The notes under the pieces are model-generated. The model worked only from the letters and a program-made list of their open reading frames with translations. It was not told where the DNA came from and ran no database searches. A program made the translations under genes and the position numbers. This document shows positions 20,848 through 45,692 of a DNA stretch of 64,000 bases, one piece after another. The first letter of the stretch is position 1. Every line of letters starts with the position of its first letter. This DNA comes from Thermodesulfobacteriota bacterium (lineage in GTDB: Bacteria > Desulfobacterota > Desulfarculia > JACQYL01). Location: assembly GCA_963675595.2 (NCBI GenBank), contig CAXXLZ010000002.1, positions 96,001 to 160,000 of the forward strand. Reading direction: 5' to 3'.

Positions 20848-21492
20848 TTGAGCAAAGAAGCATTGATTGAGAAGGCCAAACAGGTGGTCATCGAAGGCGA
20901 CGAAGACGGCGCCGTGGAATTGGCCAACAAGGTGATCGAAGAGGGCGTCAACCCCGTCGAAATCATCAACGAAGGGTTGACGCCGGGAATGACGACCATC
21001 GGCGACATGTTCGGGAATGAGGAAATTCCTCTACCCGGCGTGTTGGTCGCCGCGGAAGCGATGACCAAGGCCATCGAAATCCTGGAGCCTCACATTCCCA
21101 AGGACAGCTCTTCCAAGAAGATCGGTACGGTGGTCATTGGAACCATCGAAGGGGACATCCACGACATCGGTAAACGGATCGTGGCCACGATGATGCGCGT
21201 GTACGGCTTCGACGTGCACGACCTCGGCCGAGACGTACCCATCGGCGACTTCGTGAACACGGCCAAAGAAGTCGGGGCGGATATCGTGGGGTCTTCCACT
21301 CTGATGACCACCACCATGGCCGGTCAGAAGACTCTGGAGGAAGAGCTGAACAAAGCGGGGATCCGGGACAAGGTCAAGACCATGATCGGTGGAGCGGCGA
21401 CGACTCAGGAATGGGCCAACAAAATCGGCGCGGACTGTTACGCCGAAGACTCCACGGACGCCGTGAGAAAGGCCAAAGAGCTCATTAGTTAA
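20848..21492 (+). CDS. mttC: Trimethylamine corrinoid protein
   Basis: B12-binding EGDIHDIGK motif; TTG start with AAGGAGG; directly before mttB. Confidence 0.85.
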   Translation: MSKEALIEKAKQVVIEGDEDGAVELANKVIEEGVNPVEIINEGLTPGMTTIGDMFGNEEIPLPGVLVAAEAMTKAIEILEPHIPKDSSSKKIGTVVIGTIEGDIHDIGKRIVATMMRVYGFDVHDLGRDVPIGDFVNTAKEVGADIVGSSTLMTTTMAGQKTLEEELNKAGIRDKVKTMIGGAATTQEWANKIGADCYAEDSTDAVRKAKELIS

Positions 21493-21563: not shown

Positions 21564-23027
21564 ATGATTCGAGGACTGAAAGCCGGAGTCATGAATCTGG
21601 AAGGCTTCGGTTTGAACATGTTCAGTCGTGATCAATTAGATGAACTCCACTATGCAACCCTCGACGTCCTTCAGAACTACGGCGTCCAGGTGTATTGCGA
21701 CGAAGCCCTGGATATTTTCGACGGAGCCGGGGCCTTTGTCGACCGAAAGACCAATCAGGTGCGCATCCCCGCCAATTTGGTGGAAGATGCCATTATATCG
21801 GCACCCAGTACGATTCTGCTGGCGGGACGTACGCCGGAATACGACGTCACCATCCAGCCTCGTCGACTCGGTTTTACCTGTTTCGGCGCGGGCGTCATGG
21901 TTGTGGACCCCTTCAACGGCGAATTCCGGGAGTCCAACAAGACCGACGTGGGTCACACGGCATTGGCTTGCGACGCCATGGATAACGTGGACATTTATTC
22001 CAGCGCCGTGGTGGCCAGGGATATTTCGGGCCCCGCCACCGACCTTCACGAAGCGGAAGCGTTTCTAAGCAACACCATGAAACACTGTCAGCACATCGAT
22101 TTGACGGGCGGCCCGGGAGCCAAGAAGTTCTTTGAAATGGCCGCGGCCGTCGTCGGTGGGCTGGACAAGCTGCGGGAGCGGCCCTTGGTATCCGCTCTGG
22201 TTTGCCCTACGAGCCCCCTGCAGCTCCACACCCATACCGCCGAGATCATCATTGAGTGCGCACGGTACGGGGTGCCCGTGAACGTTCTTTCCATGGCCAT
22301 GTCGGGAGCCTCTTCCCCGGTCACTCTGGCGGGAACCCTGGTGACGCACAACGCGGAAGTGCTCAGCGGCATCGTGTTGCACCAGCTCACCGCCAAGGGA
22401 GCGCCGGTCATTTACGGCAGCTCGACCACGACCTTCGACATGAATTACACCACCGCTCCCGTTGGTTCGCCTGAATTGGGAATGATCAGCGCCGGCGTGG
22501 TGGAACTGGCTCGTTACTACATGCTTCCGAGCTACGTCGCGGGAACATAGGCTGACAGCAAACTGTCCGACGCTCAGGCCGGGCATGAAAAGACCATCAC
22601 CTCTTTGCTTCCGGCGTTGGCGGGCGCCAACTTGATCTACGGGATGGGAATGCTGGAGTTAGGAGTGACTTTCAGCTTCGCTCAACTCCTGATCGATAAC
22701 GAAATCGCCGGGATGGTCAAAAGAGTGGTCCAGGGCATTCATATATCGGACGCGACCCTCGGGGTCGAGCTGATCAAAAAGGTCGGAGCCGGGAAGGACT
22801 TTCTCGCTGAAAAACACACCAGAGAGTGGATGGGATGCGAGCAGTCCAAGGTGAAGTTGATCGACCGCAGAATGCGAGGAAACTGGACGCGAAGAGGGGC
22901 CAAGGATCTGGGGCAGGCCGCCACGGAAAAGGCCAGGGAGCTTCTGGAAACCCATAAGGTGCCGGCGCTTCCGGACAACGTGCTGTCCACGTTTAGATCC
23001 ATCATTGAGGACGTTGAGAACGAATAA
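21564..23027 (+). CDS. mttB: Pyrrolysine-containing trimethylamine:corrinoid methyltransferase (487 aa, Pyl329)
   Basis: ORFs 21564-22550 and 22605-23027 are in one frame separated only by TAG 22548-22550; read-through YVAGT-O-ADSKLSDAQAGHEKT matches the MttB Pyl site. Confidence 0.95.
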
Positions 23028-23443
23028 CGTCCTTTCGGCATAGACACCGATCGGAGGCAAAGCGGAGAACGGAACCCTTAACTCGATGAAACCTTTCGTC
23101 CGGATTGCAGAGTCTCTCCGGGTGAAGCGAATTCGACGAGAACCGGGGCCGTACCGCGTGCCGACGTCACTTACGGGCTTGGGAATCGGGCCGAAGGCCC
23201 GTTTCCCGGTCCTTTTCACCCGGTCCGGTTTCGGGTGCCGGGTTTCGCAGTCTCCCTTACGTCCACCGTCCGGCATATGCTGCGAGCCCGAAAAACAACG
23301 AGGTTCAAACCATATCCGAGTCGTTGGCTCGGTACGGGGCTTCAAGCTTCTCGGAGTAACCAACGATGCCACGCGTGTGATCGATACGACCGTCGGATGG
23401 GTGTACCGCGCGATCTAGACAAAACGAGTTGGAGGAGGACTGA

Positions 23444-25116: not shown

Positions 25117-25764
25117 ATGGATAAGAAAGAATGGTTCGAGAAAGCGGCCAAGACCGTGCTTGACGCGGATCAGGAAGCAGCCGTTAAGGTGGCTGAGGAG
25201 GCCGTTGCAGCCGGTATCAACCCCTTGGAAATGCTTAACCAGGGTTTTTCGGAAGGGATCATGCGTATTGGTGATCTTTTCGACCGAGGAGAAGTTTTTC
25301 TCCCCGAACTGATCATCGCTTCCGAAGCAATGGTCGCCGCCGTCAAGGTGCTGGAAGCGGCGTTGCCCGCTGAAGAACACAAGGAGAAGCTGGGCAAAGT
25401 CGTCATCGGAAGCATCGAAGGAGACGTTCACGACATCGGCAAAGGAATCATGGTCACCATGCTTCGCGTGTACGGGTTCGAGGTCTACGATCTCGGAAGA
25501 GACGTTCCCATCAAGTCCTTCGTTGACAAGGCGAAGGAGGTGGACGCGGACTTTGTGGGTTCTTCGGCCTTGATGACCACCACACAGGTGGGCCAGAAAG
25601 CGCTCGAGGCAGCACTGAGTGAAGCGGGACTCCGCGACAAGGTAAAAACCATGGTGGGCGGTGCTGTGGCTACCCAGCACTGGGCCAACAAAATCGGCGC
25701 CGATCTTTACGCCGAAACCGCGACGGAAGCCGTTATGAAGCTCAAGGAGCTTGCAGGCGGCTGA
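25117..25764 (+). CDS. mtbC: Dimethylamine corrinoid protein
   Basis: EGDVHDIGK motif; RBS GGAGGTG; directly before mtbB. Confidence 0.85.
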
Positions 25765-25780
25765 GAAGGGAGGTGAGTCC

Positions 25781-27181
25781 ATGAAGAAATACCTCACCCG
25801 TCGGGGTGACGGAGTCCGCATCGAGATGACGGATGACGAACTCAGAGCCGACTTTGAGTCGGGCATCCAGGATGCGGCGGAAAGAGGGAAGATCGACCCC
25901 CTTTCCAACGAGGACCTCGACCGGCTGATGGACATTTTCACTGATCCCAATCGAATCGTCGGTGTGGAACCCGGGAACGAAGTTCCCTTGACCCACGATA
26001 TCGGTACGCTTCGTTTGATGGGCGATCAGGGAAACAGCGGCGTGGGAATACCGCTGAGCAGGGTCCACGGGATCCAGGTGCATGAACGGGCTTTCTGTTC
26101 CGACTCCATGGAGCTTGGACACATTGATTACAGCTTCAAGCCCATTAAACCCGTGATCGCCATGGAACAGCAGGAGTACGAGAATGCACAAATGTGCACG
26201 ATCATTCCTCTGTTGTACGGCGCCATGCCCAATCTGGGCCTTTATTACGCCCCGGACGGCCCCTTCGGGAACCCGTCCGATCTCTTGCCCGCGGGCAAAG
26301 TCAAAGAGGCGCTGGAAGCCCAGGAACAAGCGGTGGAACACGCCACCAAAGACATGATCTATATCTCCGAGAAGCTCGCAAATGTGGGCTGCGACGGGAT
26401 CAACTTCGACACCACCGGAGCCGCGGGCGACACGGATTTCGCCGCCACGCTCAAGGCGGTGGAACATCTGAAAAAGACCACCAACCTGGCCGTCCAGGTG
26501 GGCATGGCGGGCGAGTTCGTTCTGGGAATGCACGGCAGCCTCAAGTACAACGGAACCAGGCTGGCCGGGCTCTATCCCCACAAGCAACTCGAATTGGTGG
26601 AACAAGCGGGGGCGGACATCTTCGGACCCGTGGTAAACACCAAGCCGAGCAAGTCCATGGCTTGGAATCTGGCCCGGGCGGTTACCTTCGTCAAGGCGTG
26701 TACGGCCGTCGCCAAGATTCCCATCCATGTGAATATGGGAATGGGCGTGGGCGGCTCCCCCGTTTTCGAGACTCCGCCCATCGACAGCGTGACCCGCGCA
26801 TCCAAGGCCATGGTGGAAATCGGCCGCGCGGACGGGTTGTAGATAGGCGTGGGGGACCCCCTTGGGATGCCGATAGCTCACGGCATGGCAGCAGGCATGG
26901 GCGGAATCAGGACGGCCGGAGATCTGGTGGTCCGAATGCAACTGAGCCGCAAGATGCGGATTCAGGAAGCGAAAGCCTATGTGGCCGACAAGCTGAAAGT
27001 ATCCCCGGTAGACCTGTCGGACGAGAACGTGATGAGAGAAGTCCGCGAGGAGCTGGACATCGGAGTCATCACTTCGGTCCCGGGTTGTGCCAAAGGAATG
27101 GAAGCGAAAGCGAAAATCGCCGACTTGCTCGGCATTGAAATCAACAGTGTCAGCCGTTTCAAACGGAAGCTCGGTCTATAG
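25781..27181 (+). CDS. mtbB: Pyrrolysine-containing dimethylamine:corrinoid methyltransferase (466 aa, Pyl354)
   Basis: [11 protein letters not shown] start with GGAGGTG; in-frame TAG 26840-26842 in [15 protein letters not shown]; GIRTAGDLV motif downstream; ends at TAG 27179-27181. Confidence 0.95.
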
Positions 27182-27191
27182 ACCGGAACAA

Positions 27192-27215
27192 GCGGGCTTC
27201 CCTCGGGAAGCCCGC
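27192..27215 (+). terminator. Strong hairpin after mtbB (terminator or transcript-stabilising)
   Basis: GCGGGCTTCC-CTCG-GGAAGCCCGC followed by a short CCTTT. Confidence 0.55.
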
Positions 27216-27275
27216 CCTTTCAGGCGCCCGCTGGAGAGCACCAGACTCCCGGACGCCAATACAAGGAATCATTTG

Positions 27276-27866
27276 GTGAGCCGAAAAAACACACCCGACC
27301 TTCAGTCAGCGTTCCATTCCGCCGACCCCTCTTTGGAAGAAGCGTTCGAAGCGGTCTCCCGGGAGCACGGCGTTCGCGTGTATCCTCTTGAATTGGAGAG
27401 CATCAAGCCTTCGTACAGCATCCGTCTCAAGTGTCAGGTGCCCTTGTGCGAATATTACGGTGTGTCCAAAGTATGCCCGCCGAACATCCCGGATGTCCCC
27501 GAATTCCGTGAAGCGATGAAGGATTATCGGATGGCGTTTCTGGTGGTGTACACGGAACGCATCGACAACATTCAGCACTATCGAAAGGACTTCACCGCGG
27601 AGCGAAAGCTCGCCGACGCGGTCTCCGCCTTGGAGGCGGCGGCTTATCGGCACGGTTGGTATCGGGCGTTGGGACTGTGCGTGGGGGGTTGCAAGCTGTG
27701 CCCAAGCTGTGCGGGGGCCGACGAGCCATGTCGGCATCCCTTTAAGGCCCGCCCCAGTCCGGAAGGGTTCGGCATCGACGTAACCGAACTCGCCCGCAAT
27801 CTGGGAGTGGCGGTCGAATGGCCTCCCCGCGACCAAGTCAACTTCTTGGGCCTTCTGTTCCTCTGA
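27276..27866 (+). CDS. DUF2284-type Cys-rich putative metal-binding protein
   Basis: RLKCQVPLCEYYG..CPP, GCKLCPSC...CRHPFKARPSPEGFGIDV; start at TTG/GTG 27273/27276 after AAGGA. Confidence 0.82.
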   Translation: MSRKNTPDLQSAFHSADPSLEEAFEAVSREHGVRVYPLELESIKPSYSIRLKCQVPLCEYYGVSKVCPPNIPDVPEFREAMKDYRMAFLVVYTERIDNIQHYRKDFTAERKLADAVSALEAAAYRHGWYRALGLCVGGCKLCPSCAGADEPCRHPFKARPSPEGFGIDVTELARNLGVAVEWPPRDQVNFLGLLFL

Positions 27867-27968
27867 TTCGCGACCAGGCACGGTATGAAACCGCCGTTTC
27901 TTTTTCTTCTTCAGGAATCATCGTCTCGAGAATCATGATCGAGGCGAGATGGAGTTTGAGGATATATA

Positions 27969-28937
27969 ATGTTCAGCATGCTCAGCTGTTATGATCGGGT
28001 CCGCAAGGAAGTCGTCGGCAGGGAAGTGGAAGCCAAATCCATTCTCGTGGCCATGGATGCGGGAAAACACATACTTCTCGAAGGACCTCCGGGAACCTCC
28101 AAGTCCACTCTTTTAAGAATCATCGCGAAGGAAAGCGGCATCCCCTTGTATATCATCGAAGGCAACATCGATCTGACCCCGGCCAAGCTCGTGGGGCATT
28201 TCAATCCCTCCAAGGTGATGTCCGACAGCTATCAGCCCGAATATTTCGAAAAGGGTCCCCTGACGAACGCCATGGAAGTAGGAGGGATACTGTACATCGA
28301 GGAATTTAACCGGATGCCCGCCGACGTAGCCAATGTACTCATCTCCCCCATGGAAGAAGGCGAAATGACCATTCCCAGGTACGGCAAGATCAAGGCCGTA
28401 CGCCCCTTCACCGTGATCGCGGCCCAGAACCCTTACGATGATGTGGGCACCGTGAGGGTGAGCAGGGCCTTTATGGATCGGATTTGCCTGATCCGCATGA
28501 CGTATCAGAGTGAAGAAGAAGAGATGGAGATCGTACGGAAAAGATCCACGTCCGAGGATCTCGAAGCGATCGCTTTGGCGGTGGCCATGGCGAGAAAGAC
28601 CAGGGAGCACGAGGACATCAAGCTGGGAGCGTCCGTGCGTGCCGCCATCGATCTGGCGGACATCTATTGGGGACTGCAGAAACTGGCCCGGGACCCGGTC
28701 CGGAACTTCCTCATCGCCGCAAGAATGGCCATGTCCAATAAAATATGGCTCAATGAGATGGCCGCCGACACGGCGGATACGATCATTGAACAGATTTTCG
28801 CCTCCCTGCGCAGCAAATACGGCCGCTTTTTGTACAGGAAGGAAGGCGACGAGGCCGGCGACGGCGTGGAGACGTCGGGCCAAGAATCCCTCGAAGCGGA
28901 CTTGGATATCGAAGAAAAAAAAAAGATCGCTATGTAG
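27969..28937 (+). CDS. MoxR-family AAA+ ATPase (short, 0-frame product)
   Basis: LLEGPPGTSKS Walker A, LYIEEFNR Walker B, AAQNP, AFMDR; acidic tail. Confidence 0.9.
   Translation: MFSMLSCYDRVRKEVVGREVEAKSILVAMDAGKHILLEGPPGTSKSTLLRIIAKESGIPLYIIEGNIDLTPAKLVGHFNPSKVMSDSYQPEYFEKGPLTNAMEVGGILYIEEFNRMPADVANVLISPMEEGEMTIPRYGKIKAVRPFTVIAAQNPYDDVGTVRVSRAFMDRICLIRMTYQSEEEEMEIVRKRSTSEDLEAIALAVAMARKTREHEDIKLGASVRAAIDLADIYWGLQKLARDPVRNFLIAARMAMSNKIWLNEMAADTADTIIEQIFASLRSKYGRFLYRKEGDEAGDGVETSGQESLEADLDIEEKKKIAM
28915..28925 (+). other. A10G slippery site, candidate -1 frameshift / transcriptional slippage
   Basis: GAA GAA AAA AAA AAG puts A_AAA_AAG in the correct phase; -1 frame is open and continuous with the vWA ORF. 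Confidence 0.7.
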
Positions 28938-28960
28938 GGGATAAGTTCCTCGATCGGATT

Positions 28961-29791
28961 ATGACGGGGTCGTCCTATTATTACCGGGTGGCCACGCACC
29001 TGAACAACAACCCGGACGATCTGGTCCCTTTTTTTGAGAAGCAGGACTCCCTGGAAGTATTCGCCAACATTCTGGGGATGCTGAAAAAGGACGTGAGGGA
29101 GATGGCGGCCCAGATCGCCGGCCGCATCATCATCAAGATCGCCAAACAAATCGCGGACACGGGGACGCGTTCCGGCAAGCTCAAGTTGGTCAGAGGGTGG
29201 GTGGACGGCGCGGAACTTGAGCTCGATCTGAGCCTTGAACAATACACCGAAGCGCCCGAGTTGGGCATCGTGGAAAACCTGGTTTCCTATATCAGAAAGC
29301 GGGAGAAGGAAGCCTTCATCATGTTCCTGGACCACAGCTACTCCATGAAGGGGCTCAAGATCGTTTTAGCGGCCATCACCGCGGCTTCCATCGCTCAGCA
29401 CTTCAAGCGGGACTATGCCATCATGGCGTTCAGCAATTCGGTCACCATGCTCAAAGCCATCGACGAATCCACCGGACCCGAGGAGATTCTGCAAAGGCTC
29501 TTCGCTCTGGAACTTTATGGCGACACGGATTTTCAGCGGGCGTTGGAGGCCGGCCTTTACCACCTGAGAAACTTCGACCGGAAGAGAGGGCTGATTCTAA
29601 CGGACGGAGCCTGGAACCAGGGTGGAGATCCACTGGACGCGGCCGCTCGTTTCGACAAGCTCAGCGCCATAGGCTTTCCCCCGTCCAAACACGAAAAAAT
29701 CAGGATTCTGGCGCTCAAAGGCAAAGGGGAATGCGCCTTCGTGGAAAACCAGCATGAGATATCTCGAGCCATCATCCGTTGCCTGAACTGA
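28961..29791 (+). CDS. von Willebrand A domain protein (probably C-terminal part of an AAA-vWA fusion 27969-29791)
   Basis: MIDAS DHSYSM, GDTD, ILTDG; weak RBS; frame open upstream through the poly-A site (KKKDRYVGDKFLDRIMTG). Confidence 0.88.
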   Translation: MTGSSYYYRVATHLNNNPDDLVPFFEKQDSLEVFANILGMLKKDVREMAAQIAGRIIIKIAKQIADTGTRSGKLKLVRGWVDGAELELDLSLEQYTEAPELGIVENLVSYIRKREKEAFIMFLDHSYSMKGLKIVLAAITAASIAQHFKRDYAIMAFSNSVTMLKAIDESTGPEEILQRLFALELYGDTDFQRALEAGLYHLRNFDRKRGLILTDGAWNQGGDPLDAAARFDKLSAIGFPPSKHEKIRILALKGKGECAFVENQHEISRAIIRCLN

Positions 29792-29846
29792 CTCCACGAC
29801 GGAACGCGAATCCATCATGACCGAAAGCGTAAGAACGAAATCCAAA

Positions 29847-29918
29847 GGAGGGTTGATCGGCAAGATCATGAAGACTCTAAATCTTCACAGCCGGGTTGAA
29901 CTCCCGGACCCTCCTCCA
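29847..29918 (+). tRNA. pylT: tRNA-Pyl (anticodon CUA)
   Basis: Acceptor GGAGGGT/ACCCTCC, 1-nt linker, D arm GATC-GGCAA-GATC, 6-bp anticodon stem TGAAGA/TCTTCA with loop CTCTAAA, 3-nt variable CAG, T arm CCGGG-TTGAACT-CCCGG, T73, CCA; directly before pylSn. Confidence 0.96.
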
Positions 29919-29961
29919 ATTTTCGTATCCGTTTGCCGACGGTGCATGAAGGCGTAGACTT

Positions 29962-30288
29962 ATGGGCATGCCTCAACGAAAAGCACCAGCGGCGACGAAG
30001 AAGGCGAAGAAGACTTTCTTTCGCAAAAGAGAAGACTTGGGAATGGTGCTTCAAAAGGTGAAGCTCTGGCCTTCGCGGAACGGGACCCTGCATGGAGTGC
30101 GCACCATCGTGGTGAAGGGAGCTTTCATTGATTTCACCACCCATTGCGGCCAGAAGCTACGCATCAAGAATTCGAAGAGCAGCAGGGTGTCCCGGTGGCT
30201 CAGGAACAAGTGGTACGTCAGACCTTGTTCCGGGTGTCGGGTCCCTACATGGAAACTTGAGAAATACTCCCAAACGTCTTTTCGATAA
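29962..30288 (+). CDS. pylSn: Pyrrolysyl-tRNA synthetase N-terminal subunit
   Basis: KLWPSRNGTLHG...THCG...NSKSSRVSRWLRNKW...CSGCRVPTWKLEKY signature. Confidence 0.95.
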   Translation: MGMPQRKAPAATKKAKKTFFRKREDLGMVLQKVKLWPSRNGTLHGVRTIVVKGAFIDFTTHCGQKLRIKNSKSSRVSRWLRNKWYVRPCSGCRVPTWKLEKYSQTSFR

Positions 30289-30343
30289 CCGACGAGTTCG
30301 ATCCTTCGCCGATCGATCTCCACGATGGAAGGTGAAAGTGCCC

Positions 30344-31516
30344 ATGACCGGACGAGACAATCGTCTCACAGCTGTTTTGGACGGAGTGCTGCAAGGAGGC
30401 GCCCTATCCCGCCGAGACGCGGAAACCCTGCTTTCCGCTTCAGACCCTCAGGATGTGGACAGAATTACCCAAGCGGCCCGGATCATGAGGGCGCGGCTTT
30501 TCGCCGACTCCGTTTTTCTTTACGGTTTCGTCTATTTTTCGACCTATTGCAGGAATTCCTGTACGTTTTGTTTCTACCGCAGGGGCAACAAGCAAAGCCC
30601 CAGGTACCGAAAGACCGAAACGGAGGTCAAGGACATCGCCCTCGGACTTGCCGCGTCCGGGGTTCATCTGGTGGATTTGACCATGGGTGAGGACCCATGG
30701 ATCTACGAGCGGCAGGATTACGGCGTACTCTACCGGATAGTGGGAGGCATCCGAGACGCCACGTCGGTTCCCCTCATGATTTCGCCCGGAGCCGTGCCCG
30801 ACGAGGTGCTCCGGACCTTGGCGGCTCAAGGTGTGGACTGGCTGGCCCTGTACCAGGAAACCCACAACCGAAGTCTATACGGGAAGCTCAGAGTCGGACA
30901 GAGTTACGACGAACGGGTGGAAAAGCGGAATCTGGGCGCACGGCTGGGAATGCTCGTGGAAGACGGGATTCTGCTGGGCGTGGGAGAATCCGTGCGGGAC
31001 CGGGCGGATTCCATCATGAACATGCGCTCCGGCGGATCGGACCAGGTCCGCGTCATGAGCTTTGTTCCGCAACCGGATACCCCCCTCGCCGATCGACAAA
31101 CGCCTCCCAGGCGACTCGAGCGCCTTTGCATCGCGGTCATGCGCCTCGCCATGCCGGATCGGCTGATCCCGGCTTCTCTGGACGTGGACGGCATCAACGG
31201 GCTGCGGATGCGTCTCGAAGCGGGAGCCAACGTGGTCACTTCCATCATACCGCCCCGAAGTCGCCTCGCGGGAGTTTCCCAGAGCAGTTTGGATATAGAG
31301 CCCGGTCACAGAACCGTGGCGGAGGTACGGAAGATTCTCGACGATATGGGCATGAAAGCGGCTTCCTTGTCTGAGTATGAATCATGGATGAAACAAAGAA
31401 AGCTGTTGAAAACCGGCCGGTCGGAACAAATCCAAATCGGTCTTTCCGCACTTCCCGACACGCACGCCGGCGACGTACCGAGCCATCCCCTCGGTCTGCA
31501 TCACACATATCCTTGA
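30344..31516 (+). CDS. pylB: 3-methylornithine synthase (radical SAM)
   Basis: FLYGFVYFSTYCRNSCTFC, DLTMGEDP, IPASLDVDG, AGANVVTSIIP; start ATG 30344. Confidence 0.93.
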   Translation: MTGRDNRLTAVLDGVLQGGALSRRDAETLLSASDPQDVDRITQAARIMRARLFADSVFLYGFVYFSTYCRNSCTFCFYRRGNKQSPRYRKTETEVKDIALGLAASGVHLVDLTMGEDPWIYERQDYGVLYRIVGGIRDATSVPLMISPGAVPDEVLRTLAAQGVDWLALYQETHNRSLYGKLRVGQSYDERVEKRNLGARLGMLVEDGILLGVGESVRDRADSIMNMRSGGSDQVRVMSFVPQPDTPLADRQTPPRRLERLCIAVMRLAMPDRLIPASLDVDGINGLRMRLEAGANVVTSIIPPRSRLAGVSQSSLDIEPGHRTVAEVRKILDDMGMKAASLSEYESWMKQRKLLKTGRSEQIQIGLSALPDTHAGDVPSHPLGLHHTYP

Positions 31517-31653: not shown

Positions 31654-32655
31654 ATGACAGCCAAAGAACGAGTCATGGCCGTCCTGAACCACGAGAAACC
31701 GGATCAAATGCCCGTTTTTGGGGCAAATTCCACGGTCACCTATGATCAAATGGAAAAGGTATCCGCTTTCTGGCCTAAAGGTCACGAGGACGGCGAGACC
31801 ATGGCCAAGCAGGCCATGGCCGCTTACACCATGCTGGGATTCGATGCGGTCCGGGTCCCTTTCTGCCAGACCTTCGAAGCGGAAGCTTTGGGATGCAAAG
31901 TCAAGTCGGGCGGCGACAAGGGTATTCCCGGCATTGATCATCCCCCGCCGTACAAGCTCGAGGACACCCCGGCCTTCCCCTCGGACTTCCTTTCCAGAGG
32001 GCGGATTCCCGAGTTGCTCAAGGCCGTCCGAATCCTGAAGAAGGAACTCGGCGACGACGTGCCTATTGTCGGCGGGATCATCGGGCCTTTTACCATCACC
32101 GGGTCCCTCATCGACACGGTTCCTTTGTTGAAGGCCACCTTCAAGACACCGGAAAAGATCCGCCCGTTCATGGAAGTGGCGGAAAAAGCGGGCACCGAAC
32201 TGGCAAAAGCTCTTATCGACGCGGGAGCGGACATCATCGCGGTCGAGGATATGACCGCCTCTCCGGAGCTCATCGCTCCCCAGACCTACGGAGATTACGA
32301 GGTCGAATACCAGAGCAGACAGTTCAAGGCCATCTCAGTGCCCAAGATTCTCCACATCTGTGGAAACGTGGACAAGATCGTGCACTGGATGGGCGAGACC
32401 GGTCCGGATGTCCTCAGCCTCGAGCCTAAGGCAAGTGCCAAACTCGCCCGGGAAAAATGTGGACCGGATATGATTCTCATGGGAGGAGTGGACACGGCCA
32501 CCACGCTGTTCATGGAATCGCCCGAGACGGTGAAAAAAGGGTGCGAAGCCTCCATCGCCGACGGAATCCAGATATTGGCTCCCGGATGCGCCGTGGCTCC
32601 GGGAACGCCCCTTGATAACCTGTTGGCCATGGTGGAAGTGGCTCGGAGCCGTTAA
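31654..32655 (+). CDS. mtbA: MtaA/MtbA/CmuA-family methylcobamide:thiol methyltransferase (UroD fold)
   Basis: GFDAVRVPFCQTFEAEALG, Zn motif LHICG and APGC. Confidence 0.85.
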   Translation: MTAKERVMAVLNHEKPDQMPVFGANSTVTYDQMEKVSAFWPKGHEDGETMAKQAMAAYTMLGFDAVRVPFCQTFEAEALGCKVKSGGDKGIPGIDHPPPYKLEDTPAFPSDFLSRGRIPELLKAVRILKKELGDDVPIVGGIIGPFTITGSLIDTVPLLKATFKTPEKIRPFMEVAEKAGTELAKALIDAGADIIAVEDMTASPELIAPQTYGDYEVEYQSRQFKAISVPKILHICGNVDKIVHWMGETGPDVLSLEPKASAKLAREKCGPDMILMGGVDTATTLFMESPETVKKGCEASIADGIQILAPGCAVAPGTPLDNLLAMVEVARSR

Positions 32656-32688: not shown

Positions 32689-32898
32689 ATGGAAACAACC
32701 AAGGCCTGCACTCGTTGCGGCAATAAACATACGGACGCGGAGAAAGTCGCAGGGAAGCGTTTGTCCTGTACCGAAACCAAAGAGTTTTGGGCCGACATCA
32801 GTAGAAGACATCTCGAGCTTTACGGTCACCGGGCTCATGCCACGACCAACGAAGCCGGAGAATGGATTTGCTGGGAGTGTAAACGCAGGCTTTGCTGA
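32689..32898 (+). CDS. Small Cys-rich protein (CxxC...CxxC)
   Basis: CTRC and CWEC, 69 aa, co-oriented between mtbA and ramA. Confidence 0.55.
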   Translation: METTKACTRCGNKHTDAEKVAGKRLSCTETKEFWADISRRHLELYGHRAHATTNEAGEWICWECKRRLC

Positions 32899-33143
32899 TT
32901 TAAGCAACTCACCATGAAGAACGGATCGGACCCGGGGGAAGCCCTCTCACTTTTCACCACTCGAAAGAAGGGCATTCCTCGGGCGTGATGAATCCGGCAG
33001 TTCATCGAAAATGTCGGATTCTTGCAGGCGGACCCGACCGTCGCACCCATCCGGATGCACCGGGTTCGCCTCTTTTCTTGCGTTTTGTCGCGGAACACCC
33101 TTGCCGAAATGCACTTTCCACCCGTTTCCCATAGGAAGTGATC

Positions 33144-34820
33144 ATGACCCGCATCGGTATTGCGATAGACCTGGGAACCAGCGGCTTCAGAGGACAGGCC
33201 CTGGATTTGGACCGGACCGGCCGTGTGCTCTCCACGGCGGTAACCGCGAGACATCCCCTGCCCGGAGCCAACGTGATGGATCATCTTCATTGCGCTCTCG
33301 AACTTGGAGTCGAGTGGGCGCAACAGGTGATTGTTTTCTCCGTCAACCGAATAGTCGCCGCTCTCGGCATCGATCCCCAACACGTGGTTCGCTTGGCCGT
33401 GTGCGGGAACCCGATCCAGTTGTCGATCTTTCAAGGGATCGAAATCCGAGACCTGGCCTACGCGGGTAAACGAAAACTCGAGGCATTGGGCGTGGTTCCA
33501 CCGGATCGCGACGCCCGGAAGATCAAGGCACGGGAAATCCCGGGGCTGGCGCTTCCGGGTGAGGCGGAGGTGCTCATTCCTCCGGCGGTCCGACACGAGA
33601 TAGGCGCCGACGCTCTAGCCATGATGATTCGGACGGGCATGCTGGAGAAAGACGAAATCGCCATCGCCACGGATTACGGCACGAACGCCGAAATGGCCCT
33701 CGTGGTGAACGGCACGGTCTACACCGGTTCCACCGCCGCCGGGCCGGCCCTGGAAGGCCAACAGATCGAAGATGGATTGCTGGCCCTGCCCGGAGCGATC
33801 TGCGAGGCCTCCTATCTGCGCGGTAACGCAGCTCCAGGCACCCAAGACGACTGCGGTCGCTTCGGAGTCCGGGTTCTGGACGAAGAGATGACGGCTCGCA
33901 CGGGGAGTACGGTCGATCCCTGTTCGGGAGAAACCCTGGAGCGCGGAGACGTGTCGGCCGTGGGCATAACCGGCACCGGGGTCGTTGCGCTCATCAGTGA
34001 GGGCATCAAGAGCGGACTCATCCAACCTCCGAAAATCAAGACCCCCGACGCCGCGATCCATCTGGCGGACGGAGTGAAGTTCTCGGAGAAGGACCTTTTG
34101 GAGGCCGGAAAAGCCATCGGTTCCGTCCGCGCCGGCCATTTCACACTCTGTCAAGAGGCGGGCATCAACCTCGAAGATGTTGAGGCGGCCTACATGTCGG
34201 GAGCCTCCGGTACGTATGTCAATGCCCTCAAAGCCCAACATCTGGGCATGATCCCTCCTGCCGTGAAGAAGATATATCAGGTGGGCAACACCTCCCTGGC
34301 CATGGCCCGAGAGCTGGTCTTGGATGCGGATGCCCTCTGGAAGATGAAGGAGGTCGCCGACGCCCTCAGACAACACCACTGCATGTTCGCCGTTTCCAAG
34401 ACGTTCGAGAAGGTCTATGTGCTTGAATTGTCCGTTTGGTCCGACGGTCTGACCATTGAGCAATACCGGATGTTCCTCAAGAAGTACAAACTCCCCACCC
34501 TTCCGGAAATCTCCGGCTCGGCCGAGGTCGTGAAAACGGAGGAGAAAGATATCGCCGAAGTGGGGGAATTGGGCCTGACAATCCTTACCGACGCGGGCAT
34601 GAAAAGGACTCTCGTATTCAGTGGCTGTGCCGGGGATTCTCTCTGTGTGGCGGAATGTCCGGAAAATGCACTCCGCATCCACGAAGCGGGAGAGGAGTTC
34701 GCCGTCACCATCGATCTCGCCCTCTGCAACGGTATGGCTTGCCGGAGATGCGAAACGATCTGCAACGAGCGGGCCTTTGACTGGGTGCGTCTGATCACCA
34801 TCGGAACCGGCTCTGCGTAA
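33144..34820 (+). CDS. ramA: Methylamine methyltransferase corrinoid reductive activase
   Basis: AIDLGTSGFR, RHPLPGANVMDHL, TDYGTNAEM, GSTAAGPALEG (ASKHA) plus C-terminal ferredoxin-like domain. Confidence 0.93.
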   Translation: MTRIGIAIDLGTSGFRGQALDLDRTGRVLSTAVTARHPLPGANVMDHLHCALELGVEWAQQVIVFSVNRIVAALGIDPQHVVRLAVCGNPIQLSIFQGIEIRDLAYAGKRKLEALGVVPPDRDARKIKAREIPGLALPGEAEVLIPPAVRHEIGADALAMMIRTGMLEKDEIAIATDYGTNAEMALVVNGTVYTGSTAAGPALEGQQIEDGLLALPGAICEASYLRGNAAPGTQDDCGRFGVRVLDEEMTARTGSTVDPCSGETLERGDVSAVGITGTGVVALISEGIKSGLIQPPKIKTPDAAIHLADGVKFSEKDLLEAGKAIGSVRAGHFTLCQEAGINLEDVEAAYMSGASGTYVNALKAQHLGMIPPAVKKIYQVGNTSLAMARELVLDADALWKMKEVADALRQHHCMFAVSKTFEKVYVLELSVWSDGLTIEQYRMFLKKYKLPTLPEISGSAEVVKTEEKDIAEVGELGLTILTDAGMKRTLVFSGCAGDSLCVAECPENALRIHEAGEEFAVTIDLALCNGMACRRCETICNERAFDWVRLITIGTGSA

Positions 34821-34835
34821 CCCCGGAGGCGAGTC

Positions 34836-35468
34836 ATGATCCAAGAAACCATTATCAGAGCCCTGGTCGTCGCTTTGAAGCGTGTACGAGGCATCAGCGA
34901 GGTCTTGCCCTTGGACGATCAGGATCGTCTGCGTATCCAAGAAGTCGAGAACGAGGCTCAGGAACGTTCTCTCATGGGACTGGGCAAAGTAGTGAACGAC
35001 GGAGTCATCGAGGTTCTGAGTCGCCCCCTCGTTCTGGCGGCTCTTACAACGATGGAGTTCGACTGGGGGCTTCGTCCGAGTTTGGTGCTCAAGAAAGGCC
35101 CCGTCCTGGTGGGCGAGGAGGTTCGAGACCCCGACCGTTTGTCGGAGCTGGGCCGCAATGAAGACGCTTGGTTTATGCACGAGAATTTTGTAATCTACAA
35201 AAGCCGCATGTCCTTCCCGAGAGACCTGCTCACCAAGGACTGCTTCTTCGAGATTCCGTGGTATCCGGCGGAATGGGACGAACTCCAGGGCTTGGGATCG
35301 GGGGCGCCACCCATGATCTACGGCTTTGTGTCTCCCCCCGCGGATGCCTTTCTGAAGGAGAAATATTTCCCCACGGCTGAGGAAAAAGGAATGGGGACCA
35401 TCCTCATTGGAGTGGGCCTCCAACCCGGAGAAACCGACGGCAATCCCGCGTCGCCCGAAGCTGCGTAA
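34836..35468 (+). CDS. Hypothetical protein in methylamine operon
   Basis: RBS GGAGG, 210 aa, directly after ramA. Confidence 0.75.
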   Translation: MIQETIIRALVVALKRVRGISEVLPLDDQDRLRIQEVENEAQERSLMGLGKVVNDGVIEVLSRPLVLAALTTMEFDWGLRPSLVLKKGPVLVGEEVRDPDRLSELGRNEDAWFMHENFVIYKSRMSFPRDLLTKDCFFEIPWYPAEWDELQGLGSGAPPMIYGFVSPPADAFLKEKYFPTAEEKGMGTILIGVGLQPGETDGNPASPEAA

Positions 35469-35502
35469 CTTCCGTGACGCCGTCAATCAGTGAGGTCGCA
35501 CA

Positions 35503-43814: not shown

Positions 43815-45692
43815 TCAAGCCTTGTCGCCGCTTTCGGCCGATGGACGGGCTTCCCCCTCCCTTTTCTCCATTGCCGCCTTGGTGACCGCTCGAGCCACCC
43901 GCCTGTCGGTCGCCCGCGCAAGTTCTTCCTCCGACGCCGTCCAAACCCCGTCCAGACTCCCGAAATGTGTCAGCAGCCGTGCGGCGGTTCGGGCCCCCAC
44001 TCCGGGGATATCCTCCAAGACGGATCGGAAGTCCTTCTTTTTTTTCACCTTTCTGTGAAAGGTTACGGCGAATCGGTGCGCTTCATCTCTGAGACGCTGA
44101 AATAGAGTTAGAATCTCGGAATAGTCGGGCAAGATCACGGGATTCTTGCGGTTGGGCAGAAAGAACCGTTCATGGGATTGTTCCTCTCCGCGTCCCGCGT
44201 GAATCTTCGCCATACCCACCGCATCCACATCTTCGAGCCCCAGTTCGTGGAGCACCTTCAAAGCCACGTTCAGTTGCCCTTTACCGCCGTCCACCACCAG
44301 AAGATCGGGCAGATACTCCTCCTCAATGCCGCGTTGAAACCGCCGCTTCAGCACCTCATACATCATGGCGTAATCGTCCGCACCCTCCACGGACCGAATC
44401 TTGTACCTGCGGTAGGCGTCCTTCTCGGGTTTTCCGTCCCGGAACACGACCTTGGAGCCCACCGCCTCTCGACCTTGCAGGTTCGAGATATCAAAACACT
44501 CCATGATCTTGGGCGCGCGCCTGAGATGCAGTCTTTGCCGGGCCTCCAGGAGGATTTCCTCGGACGTTCGAGTTCTCTTCTTGCGCTCCTCCCGGAACTT
44601 CTCGGCGTTGGCCTCGGCCATGAGCAGAAGCTTTCTCTTCTCTCCCCGGACCGGAACCAAAATCGAGAATTTCCCCCCTCTTCTTTCCCCCAGGACCTGC
44701 TCCAGCGCTTCCGCATCCTCCAAGGGAAAGGGCGCCAGGACTTGCTTGGGAATGAGTTTCTCCTCACCATAGAACTGCATCAGGAAGGAACTCAGGGTTT
44801 CGGAATCGGTCAGCCCCGTTCGGCGCAGCAGGAAACCTTGGGTACCCGTGAGCCTTCCGCTTCGAATGAAGAGCACCACCAGGGCCACCGGACCCGAATC
44901 CTCGCGTGACCAACCCACGACGTCCCGATCCGCAAAGTCCATGGAAATGATCTTCTGCTTCTCCAGCACCCCATCGAGATAGTGTATCTGGTCCCGAAAT
45001 CGGGCCGCCCGTTCAAATTCCAGATTTTCGGAAGCCTTCGCCATGCGAAGCTTCAAATCGTCGATGAGGGATCGGTCGCGTCCTTCCAGAAAACGTTTCA
45101 CGTCCTTTACCACGTACCGGTATTCGGCAGGATCGGTCAACTCGCCGCAGGAACAGGAACCCATCTGGAAATACAGGCAAGGCCGGCGCAGGTCTCGGTC
45201 CGGCCGACAACGCCGCAAAGGAAAGTACCTGTGGAGAAGACGCCAGGTTTCCCGCACGCCCTTGGCCGAAGTATAGGGCCCGAAATACAGCCCCTGGTCT
45301 TTTTTCACCTTGCGGACCAGCGTCAACCTGGGGAACTGCTCCTGCATGTTGAACTTCAGGTAAAGGTAATGTTTGTCGTCCCGCAGGTCCACGTTGAATC
45401 GGGGTTTGTGCTTTTTGATAAGCATGTCTTCCAGGAGAAGGGCTTCCTTTTCCGAGTCGGTGACGATGGTCTCGATGTCCCGAATCCTGGAAACCAGCAA
45501 CTTGATGCGAGGGCCGCGCCCCTGCACGTCGGAACGGAAATAGGAGCCCACCCTGGCTTTGAGATTCTTGGCTTTCCCCACATACAGGATGGTTCCGGAC
45601 GAATTCTTCATCTGATACACGCCGGGAAGCGCGGGGATGGACGCCAACCTTTCCTTGAGTTCGGACTTGATCGGTGTGGACGAATCGTTCAT
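43815..45692 (-). CDS. uvrC: Excinuclease ABC subunit C
   Basis: GIY-YIG PGVY/YVGKAKNL, ECFDISN, VDGGKGQL, RDEAHRFA, HhH. Confidence 0.96.
   Translation of the reverse strand: MNDSSTPIKSELKERLASIPALPGVYQMKNSSGTILYVGKAKNLKARVGSYFRSDVQGRGPRIKLLVSRIRDIETIVTDSEKEALLLEDMLIKKHKPRFNVDLRDDKHYLYLKFNMQEQFPRLTLVRKVKKDQGLYFGPYTSAKGVRETWRLLHRYFPLRRCRPDRDLRRPCLYFQMGSCSCGELTDPAEYRYVVKDVKRFLEGRDRSLIDDLKLRMAKASENLEFERAARFRDQIHYLDGVLEKQKIISMDFADRDVVGWSREDSGPVALVVLFIRSGRLTGTQGFLLRRTGLTDSETLSSFLMQFYGEEKLIPKQVLAPFPLEDAEALEQVLGERRGGKFSILVPVRGEKRKLLLMAEANAEKFREERKKRTRTSEEILLEARQRLHLRRAPKIMECFDISNLQGREAVGSKVVFRDGKPEKDAYRRYKIRSVEGADDYAMMYEVLKRRFQRGIEEEYLPDLLVVDGGKGQLNVALKVLHELGLEDVDAVGMAKIHAGRGEEQSHERFFLPNRKNPVILPDYSEILTLFQRLRDEAHRFAVTFHRKVKKKKDFRSVLEDIPGVGARTAARLLTHFGSLDGVWTASEEELARATDRRVARAVTKAAMEKREGEARPSAESGDKA

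Follow-up and report, generated by a model that had tools for sequence, protein, structure and literature searches.

In the chlD genes of magnesium and cobalt chelatases that are decoded by frameshifting (fs-chlD), a poly-A site between the AAA+ and VWA domains allows one gene to specify the small as well as the medium chelatase subunit (PMC3711429, PMC9227772, PMC5009743). Frameshifting on the chlD poly-A sequence in Escherichia coli amounted to 63, 40 and 10% for A11, A9 and A7, respectively (PMC3711429), and the event has been described as ribosomal (PMC9227772, PMC5009743). The dnaX gene of E. coli undergoes programmed ribosomal -1 frameshifting on A_AAA_AAG, and that of Thermus thermophilus uses RNA polymerase slippage on an A9 run; in dnaX genes the long form is made either by standard decoding or solely after slippage (PMC3711429, PMC1088944). 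Here we describe a gene for a predicted MoxR-class AAA+ ATPase in a 64,000-nucleotide stretch of DNA from a Thermodesulfobacteriota bacterium (positions 96,001 to 160,000 of contig CAXXLZ010000002.1, assembly GCA_963675595.2; the whole stretch is referred to below as the window). This one gene very probably gives rise to two proteins by programmed slippage on a run of ten A residues (A10) in its linker, and would then represent a second, independent family in which an AAA+ motor and a VWA-bearing version of it are made from a single gene by poly-A slippage.

The gene resembles fs-chlD in combining an AAA+ module, a linker and a VWA domain, in carrying a poly-A site (A_AAA_AAR) between the two domains with a -1 shift for the long subunit and an AAA-only short product, in having single open reading frame (ORF) fusions as counterparts in other species, and in occurring in both bacteria and archaea. 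Like the fs-chlD genes, it consists of overlapping ORFs homologous to fusions, with a conserved A-rich junction and no independent downstream start. It differs in belonging to a separate family, whose neighbours are corrinoid methyltransferase genes rather than genes for tetrapyrrole synthesis. With dnaX (tau/gamma) it would have in common two AAA+ isoforms that share an N-terminus and stem from an A-run, and in both genes the alternative frames close nearby. The protein functions are unrelated, however, and the extra part here is an entire VWA domain; the in-phase heptamer of E. coli dnaX has a counterpart at the junction, whereas its conserved 3′ hairpin does not.

At the protein level the best structural matches of both halves include NorQ/NorD and CbbQ/CbbO, ATP-driven remodellers that enable cofactor insertion into, or activation of, a neighbouring enzyme. 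[quoted passage not shown] Midasin (Rea1) likewise has AAA+ modules and a MIDAS domain in one polypeptide, and provides the top AAA sequence match as well as a MIDAS fold match, but it is a eukaryotic protein of 4,700-4,900 residues whose AAA modules share a single chain, and it is made without recoding. We found no literature on recoding in the present MoxR-VWA family, although the supplementary list of 146 GeneTack recoding clusters belonging to PMC3711429 might include it. Literature on DUF2284, pyrrolysine (Pyl), dimethylamine methyltransferase and AAA ATPases, including passages of PMC8318568, yielded nothing on the present gene.

The A10 junction and its two reading frames

Numbered from the ATG at 27969, the 0-frame codons at the junction read GAA GAA AAA AAA AAG ATC GCT ATG TAG, the G at 28925 directly following A10 (coordinates of all features are given in Table 1). 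The heptamer A_AAA_AAG, of the X_XXY_YYZ type, is in phase with this frame, as an earlier note on this DNA had reported, and the sequence agrees equally with its description of the two frames. The 0 frame stops at TAG after 322 residues; the -1 frame is open from 28790, reads KKKDRYVGDKFLDRIMTG and continues to the TGA at 29789-29791. A -1 shift on the run joins 319 residues to 288 residues to give a fusion of 607, in which KKKDRYVGDKF crosses the junction into the VWA part. Standard decoding would therefore be expected to produce the 322-residue ATPase, terminated four codons past the run, and a -1 change within the run to produce the 607-residue AAA+-linker-VWA protein. The change could come about if RNA polymerase added one A to the mRNA, or if the ribosome stepped back one base on A_AAA_AAG.

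No other homopolymer in the 64-kb window (GC 56%) reaches a length of nine; after the run, the longest are one A8 and one T8. AAA makes up 6 of the 17 lysine codons in the AAA+ domain of the window gene. The note had also stated that the ATG of the VWA part, at 28961, lacks a good ribosome-binding site, and inspection by eye indeed revealed no Shine-Dalgarno-like sequence just 5′ of it. At the other end of the gene, a second ATG at 27978 is a possible true start, as it aligns with orthologues that begin MLEIY; both products would then be three residues shorter. Decoding of the TAG at 28935 as Pyl was considered as a means of joining the two parts and rejected, since it adds only eight 0-frame codons before a TGA. 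A promoter and terminator scan of 27000-30400 gave counts no higher than the shuffled level.

Conservation of the junction among relatives

We collected 80 loci, one genome per species, compared the 38 closest by tblastn with a full-length single-ORF orthologue, and then read the junctions. Searches with the VWA part had identified 41 longer protein relatives, 40 of them single-ORF AAA-VWA fusions of 523-628 residues with 50-70% identity. Fusions that align to both pieces of the window gene continue straight through the junction; the orthologue P0004, for example, has '...KAKKK-KDDRYVGDWFL...' opposite '...IEEKKK' and 'DRYVGDKFL...' in the window. Taken alone, this colinearity would suggest a broken fusion gene, but the DNA of the relatives contradicts it. 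The VWA part lies in the -1 frame, with the change at an unbroken run of A9-A12, in the window and in 27 of the 38 related loci. Among these 28 sites the run is A9 in 12, A10 in nine, A11 in six and A12 in one, and is never shorter than nine. The -1 loci are spread over Thermodesulfobacteriota, Bacillota (Thermincola and Peptococcaceae among them), a member of the Thermodesulfovibrionales, six Actinomycetota and one archaeon, Ca. Hydrothermarchaeum. Overall, an A9-A12 run is found at the junction in 36 of 39 loci, the window included, in genomes whose GC content ranges from 41 to 67%.

Six related loci (L001, L003, L005, L008, L012 and L015) are in frame and retain A9-A10 at the same place, so that the run is conserved also in genes whose frame can do without it. 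In the first four of these both other frames close within a few codons past the run, and any slip there would thus yield a short form. The combination of -1 loci and in-frame loci that keep the run lends support to the proposal of the earlier note that a single gene is recoded into two products. The poly-A run and the -1 offset are both kept in the orthologues, which are not separate genes with VWA starts of their own.

The sequences on either side of the run are constrained in a similar way. From the point at which it opens to the last base of the run, the VWA frame is free of ATG, GTG and TTG in all 30 shifted loci with an unbroken run, and in 11 of these it opens only at a TAA composed of a T and the first two A residues of the run itself. 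Immediately after the run, the residues xDRYVGDxF are conserved and colinear with the 40 single-ORF fusions. The 0 frame closes 6-13 nt past the run in 25 of the 28 -1 loci, often at a stop built on a rare xTA codon of the overlapping frame. This stop is TAG in 26 of the 28 loci and TAA in two; for comparison, the 33 Pfam-supported ORFs of the window end in TGA (22), TAG (six) and TAA (five). The TAG is formed from xTA-G of the overlapping frame in several sequence contexts, which include rare xTA codons of high-GC Actinomycetota. Read-through of TAG would extend the short product by between 2 and 119 codons across the -1 loci, and these extensions are not conserved.

A larger sample was obtained at the protein level, where 2688 protein clusters (177-564 residues) match the short product at E<=1e-60. 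A lysine run occurs within the last 16 residues in 108 of the best 120 of these clusters (median 320 residues, the window's own included), and in 68 of the best 120 exactly four residues follow it. The recurrence of the -1 state in relatives, together with these lysine-run ends, means that an assembly slip in the window cannot explain the pattern. In hundreds of genomes, annotation pipelines present the gene as two, a 'MoxR-like ATPase' and an orphan VWA protein, and the 607-residue type of product is consequently missing from protein databases for most species.

Codon usage points to selection on the run at the nucleotide level. Of the 57 lysine codons in the AAA+ domain of the six Actinomycetota A9 loci (64-67% GC), only eight are AAA; at the junction, by contrast, each of the six reads AAA AAA AAA. 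A maximum-likelihood tree was built from 37 AAA+ domains, L019 and L030 being omitted as their AAA+ parts are incomplete. The -1 state is found on all deep branches of the tree and the in-frame states are nested within Thermodesulfobacteriota. Seven changes between -1 and other states were counted, at least three of them forced by well-supported branches, and the frame state has therefore flipped repeatedly while the run persisted. Among loci with an unbroken run, 28 are in the -1 state, two in the +1 state and six in frame, which is unlike what a random on/off switch or decay leaves.

Route of the frame change and rival explanations

Because slippage by RNA polymerase and by the ribosome gives the same protein, sequence alone cannot decide between them. 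Provided that recoding is real, we lean towards RNA polymerase slippage as the main route and regard the ribosomal route as a credible but less probable one; the two may also be combined. Polymerase slippage is favoured by the fact that every unbroken -1 run has at least nine nucleotides, although seven suffice for the ribosome, by the retention of a long run in the in-frame genes, and by the presence of an in-phase AAG (A_AAA_AAG) at only 8 of the 28 sites. It is favoured also by the lack of a conserved 3′ hairpin: no conserved RNA structure was detected in the 60 nt past the run (36 loci, mean z -0.41; for the window, minimum free energy -12.6, z +0.55), and the folds with z<=-2 seen downstream in 7 of the 36 loci are unrelated to one another. 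The unbroken sites have the uninterrupted A or T run of about nine or more that characterizes transcriptional slippage in Thermus dnaX, insertion sequence (IS) elements and mxiE. Selection against A/T runs sets in at nine in many bacteria, and nine is the length used by Thermus dnaX (PMC1088944). The -1 frameshift of the earlier note stands as a -1 transition by either route.

Purely ribosomal frameshifting of the dnaX kind, in which the mRNA is a faithful A10 copy and the tRNA-Lys pairs slip back one base on A_AAA_AAG, is possible but in our estimate doubtful. It would fit the heptamer found in phase in the window and seven other loci, and the occurrence of at least A_AAA_AAA in phase at all -1 loci; the chlD precedent described as ribosomal and the apparent ribosomal cassette seen at the same domain boundary in 17 loci of Pseudonocardiaceae homologues (see below) also speak for it. 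So does L037, where the -1 state accompanies an interrupted run, AAAAGAAAA, which could still permit a one-tRNA slip but hardly polymerase slippage. The remaining 20 of the 28 sites, however, have no in-phase AAG, and to the missing hairpin, the lack of runs below nine and the long run of the in-frame loci can be added two variants that require a +1 change and would not be rescued by a -1 slip. For a Shine-Dalgarno-like stimulator upstream of the run, considered by eye, the GAG/GGA-rich acidic linker makes chance matches likely.

Explanations that dispense with recoding fare considerably worse. If A10 were a homopolymer sequencing or assembly error, the true gene would be a plain in-frame fusion with A11 or A8. 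The run is the longest homopolymer in the window, relatives do have in-frame fusions, and the 4.73-Mb contig may derive from long reads; an error nevertheless seems highly improbable when the -1 state is present in 27 independently assembled loci with four run lengths and is mirrored in 108 of the best 120 short homologues. Nor would the conserved 0-frame stop and the conserved upstream stop of the -1 frame arise from error. The other Pfam-supported genes of the 64 kb each keep to one frame, the only interrupted ones, mttB and mtbB, being broken by an in-frame TAG (Pyl); the uvrC gene, which contains the T8 run at 44038, is intact. Phase variation by replication slippage, or the decay of a pseudogene, would account for the changes of frame state on the tree (at least seven) and for close relatives that are one A apart (L004/L027 and L023/L026), and long A-runs are known to be hypermutable (PMC1088944, PMC3711429). 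A random switch should fill both off-frames, though, and not produce the observed skew towards -1; moreover the -1 state spans phylum-level divergence with both halves conserved and with Walker and MIDAS motifs intact, and the family is found in free-living anaerobes, where its genes belong to metabolic operons and do not accompany those for surface antigens. We therefore consider this explanation very unlikely.

An arrangement of two ordinary adjacent genes, with the VWA protein initiated separately, for instance at ATG 28961, and perhaps translationally coupled, agrees with the way in which pipelines annotate stand-alone VWA proteins (264-288 residues) and short 'MoxR-like ATPase' entries, and with the usual separation of MoxR and VWA partners, as in NorQ/NorD and CbbQ/CbbO. 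It is extremely improbable for the present gene: besides having no Shine-Dalgarno sequence, the methionine at 28961 is not conserved, whereas the 12 codons that precede it encode a conserved protein segment (DRYVGDxF) that runs colinear with the fusions, and none of the 30 shifted loci offers a start codon upstream of that segment.

Several observations weigh against programmed slippage on the run as the explanation, or against the function proposed below. Nearly all of the comparison sequences are metagenome-assembled genomes (MAGs), in which homopolymer lengths may be wrong, and the closest relative of the window protein in the protein collection is only 75% identical, so that A10 is not confirmed by a second assembly of the organism. 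The interrupted run of L037 makes polymerase slippage unlikely at that locus. L004 (A11) and L023 (A9) require +1 rather than -1, each being one A shorter than a close relative (L004:6753-6763 compared with L027:1641-1652, and L023:8927-8935 with L026:8927-8936); L023 and L026 are two contigs of one MAG, and L023 holds a second frame break. These one-A differences could reflect assembly error, strain variation, mutation or replication slippage. In L011 the two parts form a plain in-frame fusion whose junction lacks a long run, which implies that two isoforms are not indispensable, and the in-frame loci that do carry the run would make mainly the long form, which fits badly with one fixed ratio of short to long product. 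An activase of the RACo type is encoded near the gene in L022, so that the AAA-VWA machine would not be a simple replacement for RACo. Finally, slippage is inferred here from comparative anatomy, and the role in corrinoid metabolism and the target of the machine from gene neighbourhood.

Protein family, gene neighbourhood and other layouts

The 0-frame product matched the Pfam families AAA_5 (1.3e-22) and AAA_3 (2.1e-16), and the -1 part VWA_CoxE (6e-08) and VWA (1.7e-05). When compared by sequence with solved structures, the AAA part gave as best matches the midasin AAA modules (4.7e-26), MoxR 2r44, NorQ and CbbQ, and the same set gave the best fold matches of a model of P0004; E values in these comparisons include 4.4e-12 for 2r44, 5.7e-12 for NorQ and 8.9e-10 for CbbQ. 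Sequence and model together thus identify the AAA part as a MoxR-class AAA+ domain with Walker A and B motifs. The P0004 model has a mean predicted local distance difference test score (pLDDT) of 70.8, and its residues 293-325, the equivalent of the linker that holds the slip site, form a disordered stretch with pLDDT <50. A sequence search of the Protein Data Bank with the VWA part gave nothing useful (best E 0.11). A model of the VWA part of the window (pLDDT 85.4) has its closest fold match in NorQD complexes, in the NorD VWA domain (E 8.6e-11), with the MIDAS domains of MDN1/Rea1 next. The complete MIDAS motif, DxSxS-T-D, is present, and its residues D136, S138, S140, T201 and D227 are the same in all 24 sequences compared. 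A strongly conserved segment, ADTGxRSGKLKLVxGxxDGAEIELD (P0004 404-451, about 29150-29260 in the window), which is modelled with low confidence, separates the helical region from the VWA fold. It may be the counterpart of the pore-inserting finger of NorD and midasin VWA domains.

The likeness to chlD noted earlier holds for the type of mechanism and does not extend to family membership. Assignment to ChlD/BchD or to the cobaltochelatases was rejected on family cutoffs and on the lack of a cobN neighbour: the AAA product scored 24.7 bits against TIGR02031 (BchD-ChlD; cutoff 499.55) and 30.9 against TIGR02442 (putative cobaltochelatase; cutoff 779.45), and P0004 scored 18.7 against TIGR01650 (CobS; cutoff 558.55). 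The VWA part had no NCBIfam match, and the distant homologues also fell below the cutoffs of the chelatase models. No gene for CobN/ChlH (Mg-chelatase H domain) was present among 45 ORFs of the window or among 49 neighbour ORFs of nine loci.

By analogy with NorQ/NorD, CbbQ/CbbO and midasin, the AAA+ parts would form a hexamer in which a minority of the subunits carry the VWA/MIDAS adaptor. In NorQD the VWA domain extends a finger into the pore of the NorQ hexamer (PMC13036017), which leaves room for one VWA domain per ring; many AAA-only chains and few AAA-VWA chains might build just such a one-VWA ring. Slippage on the run would then suggest a general way of fixing the ratio of motor to adaptor in MoxR/VWA machines. 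The machine is proposed to remodel a protein of the adjoining corrinoid-dependent methyltransferase system, for instance by inserting or swapping its corrinoid or metal.

In the window the gene follows a dimethylamine methyltransferase gene and a DUF2284 gene and precedes pylT (Table 1). The earlier note had suggested a chaperone for the maturation of corrinoid or Pyl methyltransferases with DUF2284 as partner, and this fits the synteny. Of the 38 related loci, 20 contain mtbB and 17 contain DUF2284, which in 12 loci lies directly upstream of the AAA-VWA gene; many also have a gene for MttB (trimethylamine methyltransferase). The adjacency to pylT is real in the window but incidental, and a specific pylT link was rejected: pylT was found within 8 kb in just three of the 38 loci. 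Neighbours in the subclade without Pyl genes include CobW-type GTPases (L012, L015, L022, L026), a corrinoid adenosyltransferase (L012), the methanol methyltransferase MtaB (L022, L026), the RACo-type activase of L022, a URO-D gene (L012) and DUF1638 (L011). Judged from these gene contents, the common denominator of the neighbourhoods is corrinoid-dependent methyl transfer, not pyrrolysine. The gene flags a conserved, uncharacterised ATP-dependent factor in the operons with which anaerobic bacteria and some archaea carry out methyl transfer from dimethylamine, trimethylamine and methanol, systems in which the maturation and repair of corrinoid proteins are only partly understood.

All these elements can be joined, tentatively, into one scheme. 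The family would be an unnamed but widespread MoxR-VWA machine in which recoding sets the number of adaptor-bearing subunits at about one per hexamer, and which acts as a missing accessory factor of corrinoid-dependent methyltransferases (dimethylamine, trimethylamine, methanol): jointly with DUF2284 and/or CobW it would load the corrinoid, exchange it or re-metallate it. A need for two isoforms would then be old, and would have been solved independently in different lineages by the A-run, by U_UUU_UUC with a hairpin, by tandem genes and possibly by an in-frame TGA. We consider this scheme as a whole speculative.

Table 1. Features of the recoded gene, its neighbours in the window, and tandem-gene loci among distant homologues
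Feature	Position	Strand	Remarks
0-frame ORF, short product: predicted MoxR-class AAA+ ATPase with acidic linker, 322 residues, ends KKKIAM then TAG	27969..28937	+	ORF, Pfam and structure matches
Walker A motif, GPPGTSKST	28083..28109	+	Nearly invariant across alignment of single-ORF relatives
Walker B region, LYIEEF	28290..28307	+	Conserved across the same alignment
TGA bounding the -1 frame on its 5′ side	28787..28789	+	-1 frame open from 28790; no ATG, GTG or TTG before the run
Acidic linker RKEGDEAGDGVETSGQESLEADLDIEE, spacer between AAA+ and VWA	28836..28916	+	Sequence variable; from alignment
A10 slippery run, putative site of frame change	28915..28924	+	Heptamer A_AAA_AAG at 28919-28925; from sequence
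0-frame TAG stop	28935..28937	+	Inside conserved GTA-GGN (Val-Gly) codons of the -1 frame; from sequence
-1-frame part of long product: DRYVGDKF, helical region, conserved loop or hairpin, VWA domain; 288 residues and TGA	28925..29791	+	ORF, Pfam, model
MIDAS DxSxS (DHSYS)	29330..29344	+	MIDAS Thr in GDTDF, 29519-29533; MIDAS Asp in LTDGAWN, 29597-29617
Corrinoid protein, mtbC-like	25117-25764	+	Upstream of mtbB
Dimethylamine methyltransferase, mtbB	25751-27181	+	In-frame TAG (Pyl) at 26840-26842; synteny conserved
DUF2284, Cys-rich predicted metal-binding protein	27087..27866	+	6e-40; start codon uncertain
pylT, tRNA-Pyl (CUA)	29847-29918	+	56 nt past VWA stop
pylSn, PylS N-terminal domain	29962-30288	+	5.5e-32
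pylB ORF	30128-31516	+	6.7e-135
URO-D-family methyltransferase	31654-32655	+	After pylB
Tandem-gene loci	L040:8001-10903, L044:8001-10903, L048:1347-4250, L071:7020-9957		Chloroflexota, Rubrobacter, Sphaerobacter, Ktedonobacterales

Elsewhere in the window, an mttB-like gene at 21564-23080 contains an in-frame TAG (Pyl) directly after 22547 and is preceded by its own corrinoid protein gene (20848-21489). The genes pylSc, pylC and pylD were not located in the window. Two long minus-strand ORFs, at 32838-33596 and 33618-35486, had no Pfam or NCBIfam match.

The more distant homologues display other layouts at the boundary between the two domains. In 17 loci from Pseudonocardia and Actinomycetospora, with about 45% identity in the AAA+ part (L055-L058, L061, L063, L064, L066, L067, L070, L072-L074 and L076-L079; for example L055:8828-8880), the VWA part is in the -1 frame behind a different signal. 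This consists of CAT TTT TTC, in which T_TTT_TTC is in phase, followed after a 6-nt spacer by a 7-bp GC hairpin that is invariant, CCCGGCG-N5-CGCCGGG, and the 0 frame stops about 40 nt further on; as the stem never varies, there is no covariation. The signal looks like a canonical ribosomal -1 frameshift cassette. A-runs occur at the domain boundary in L075 (A9) and in L046 and L049 (A7). In the tandem-gene loci of Table 1, an AAA-only gene (291-297 residues from the start of the match) is accompanied by an AAA-VWA gene (652-667 residues), an arrangement like that of chlI and chlD, in which a duplicated gene takes the place of the second isoform. The variety of these layouts suggests, as a lead and not as proof, that the family requires an AAA-only chain alongside an AAA-VWA chain. 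In two further loci, L013:8905-8915 (one of the 38 related loci, from the isolate Desulfospira joergensenii) and L080:8900-8910 (a Pseudonocardia MAG), a single in-frame TGA separates the AAA+ and VWA parts, which could represent stop-codon read-through or simply two genes.

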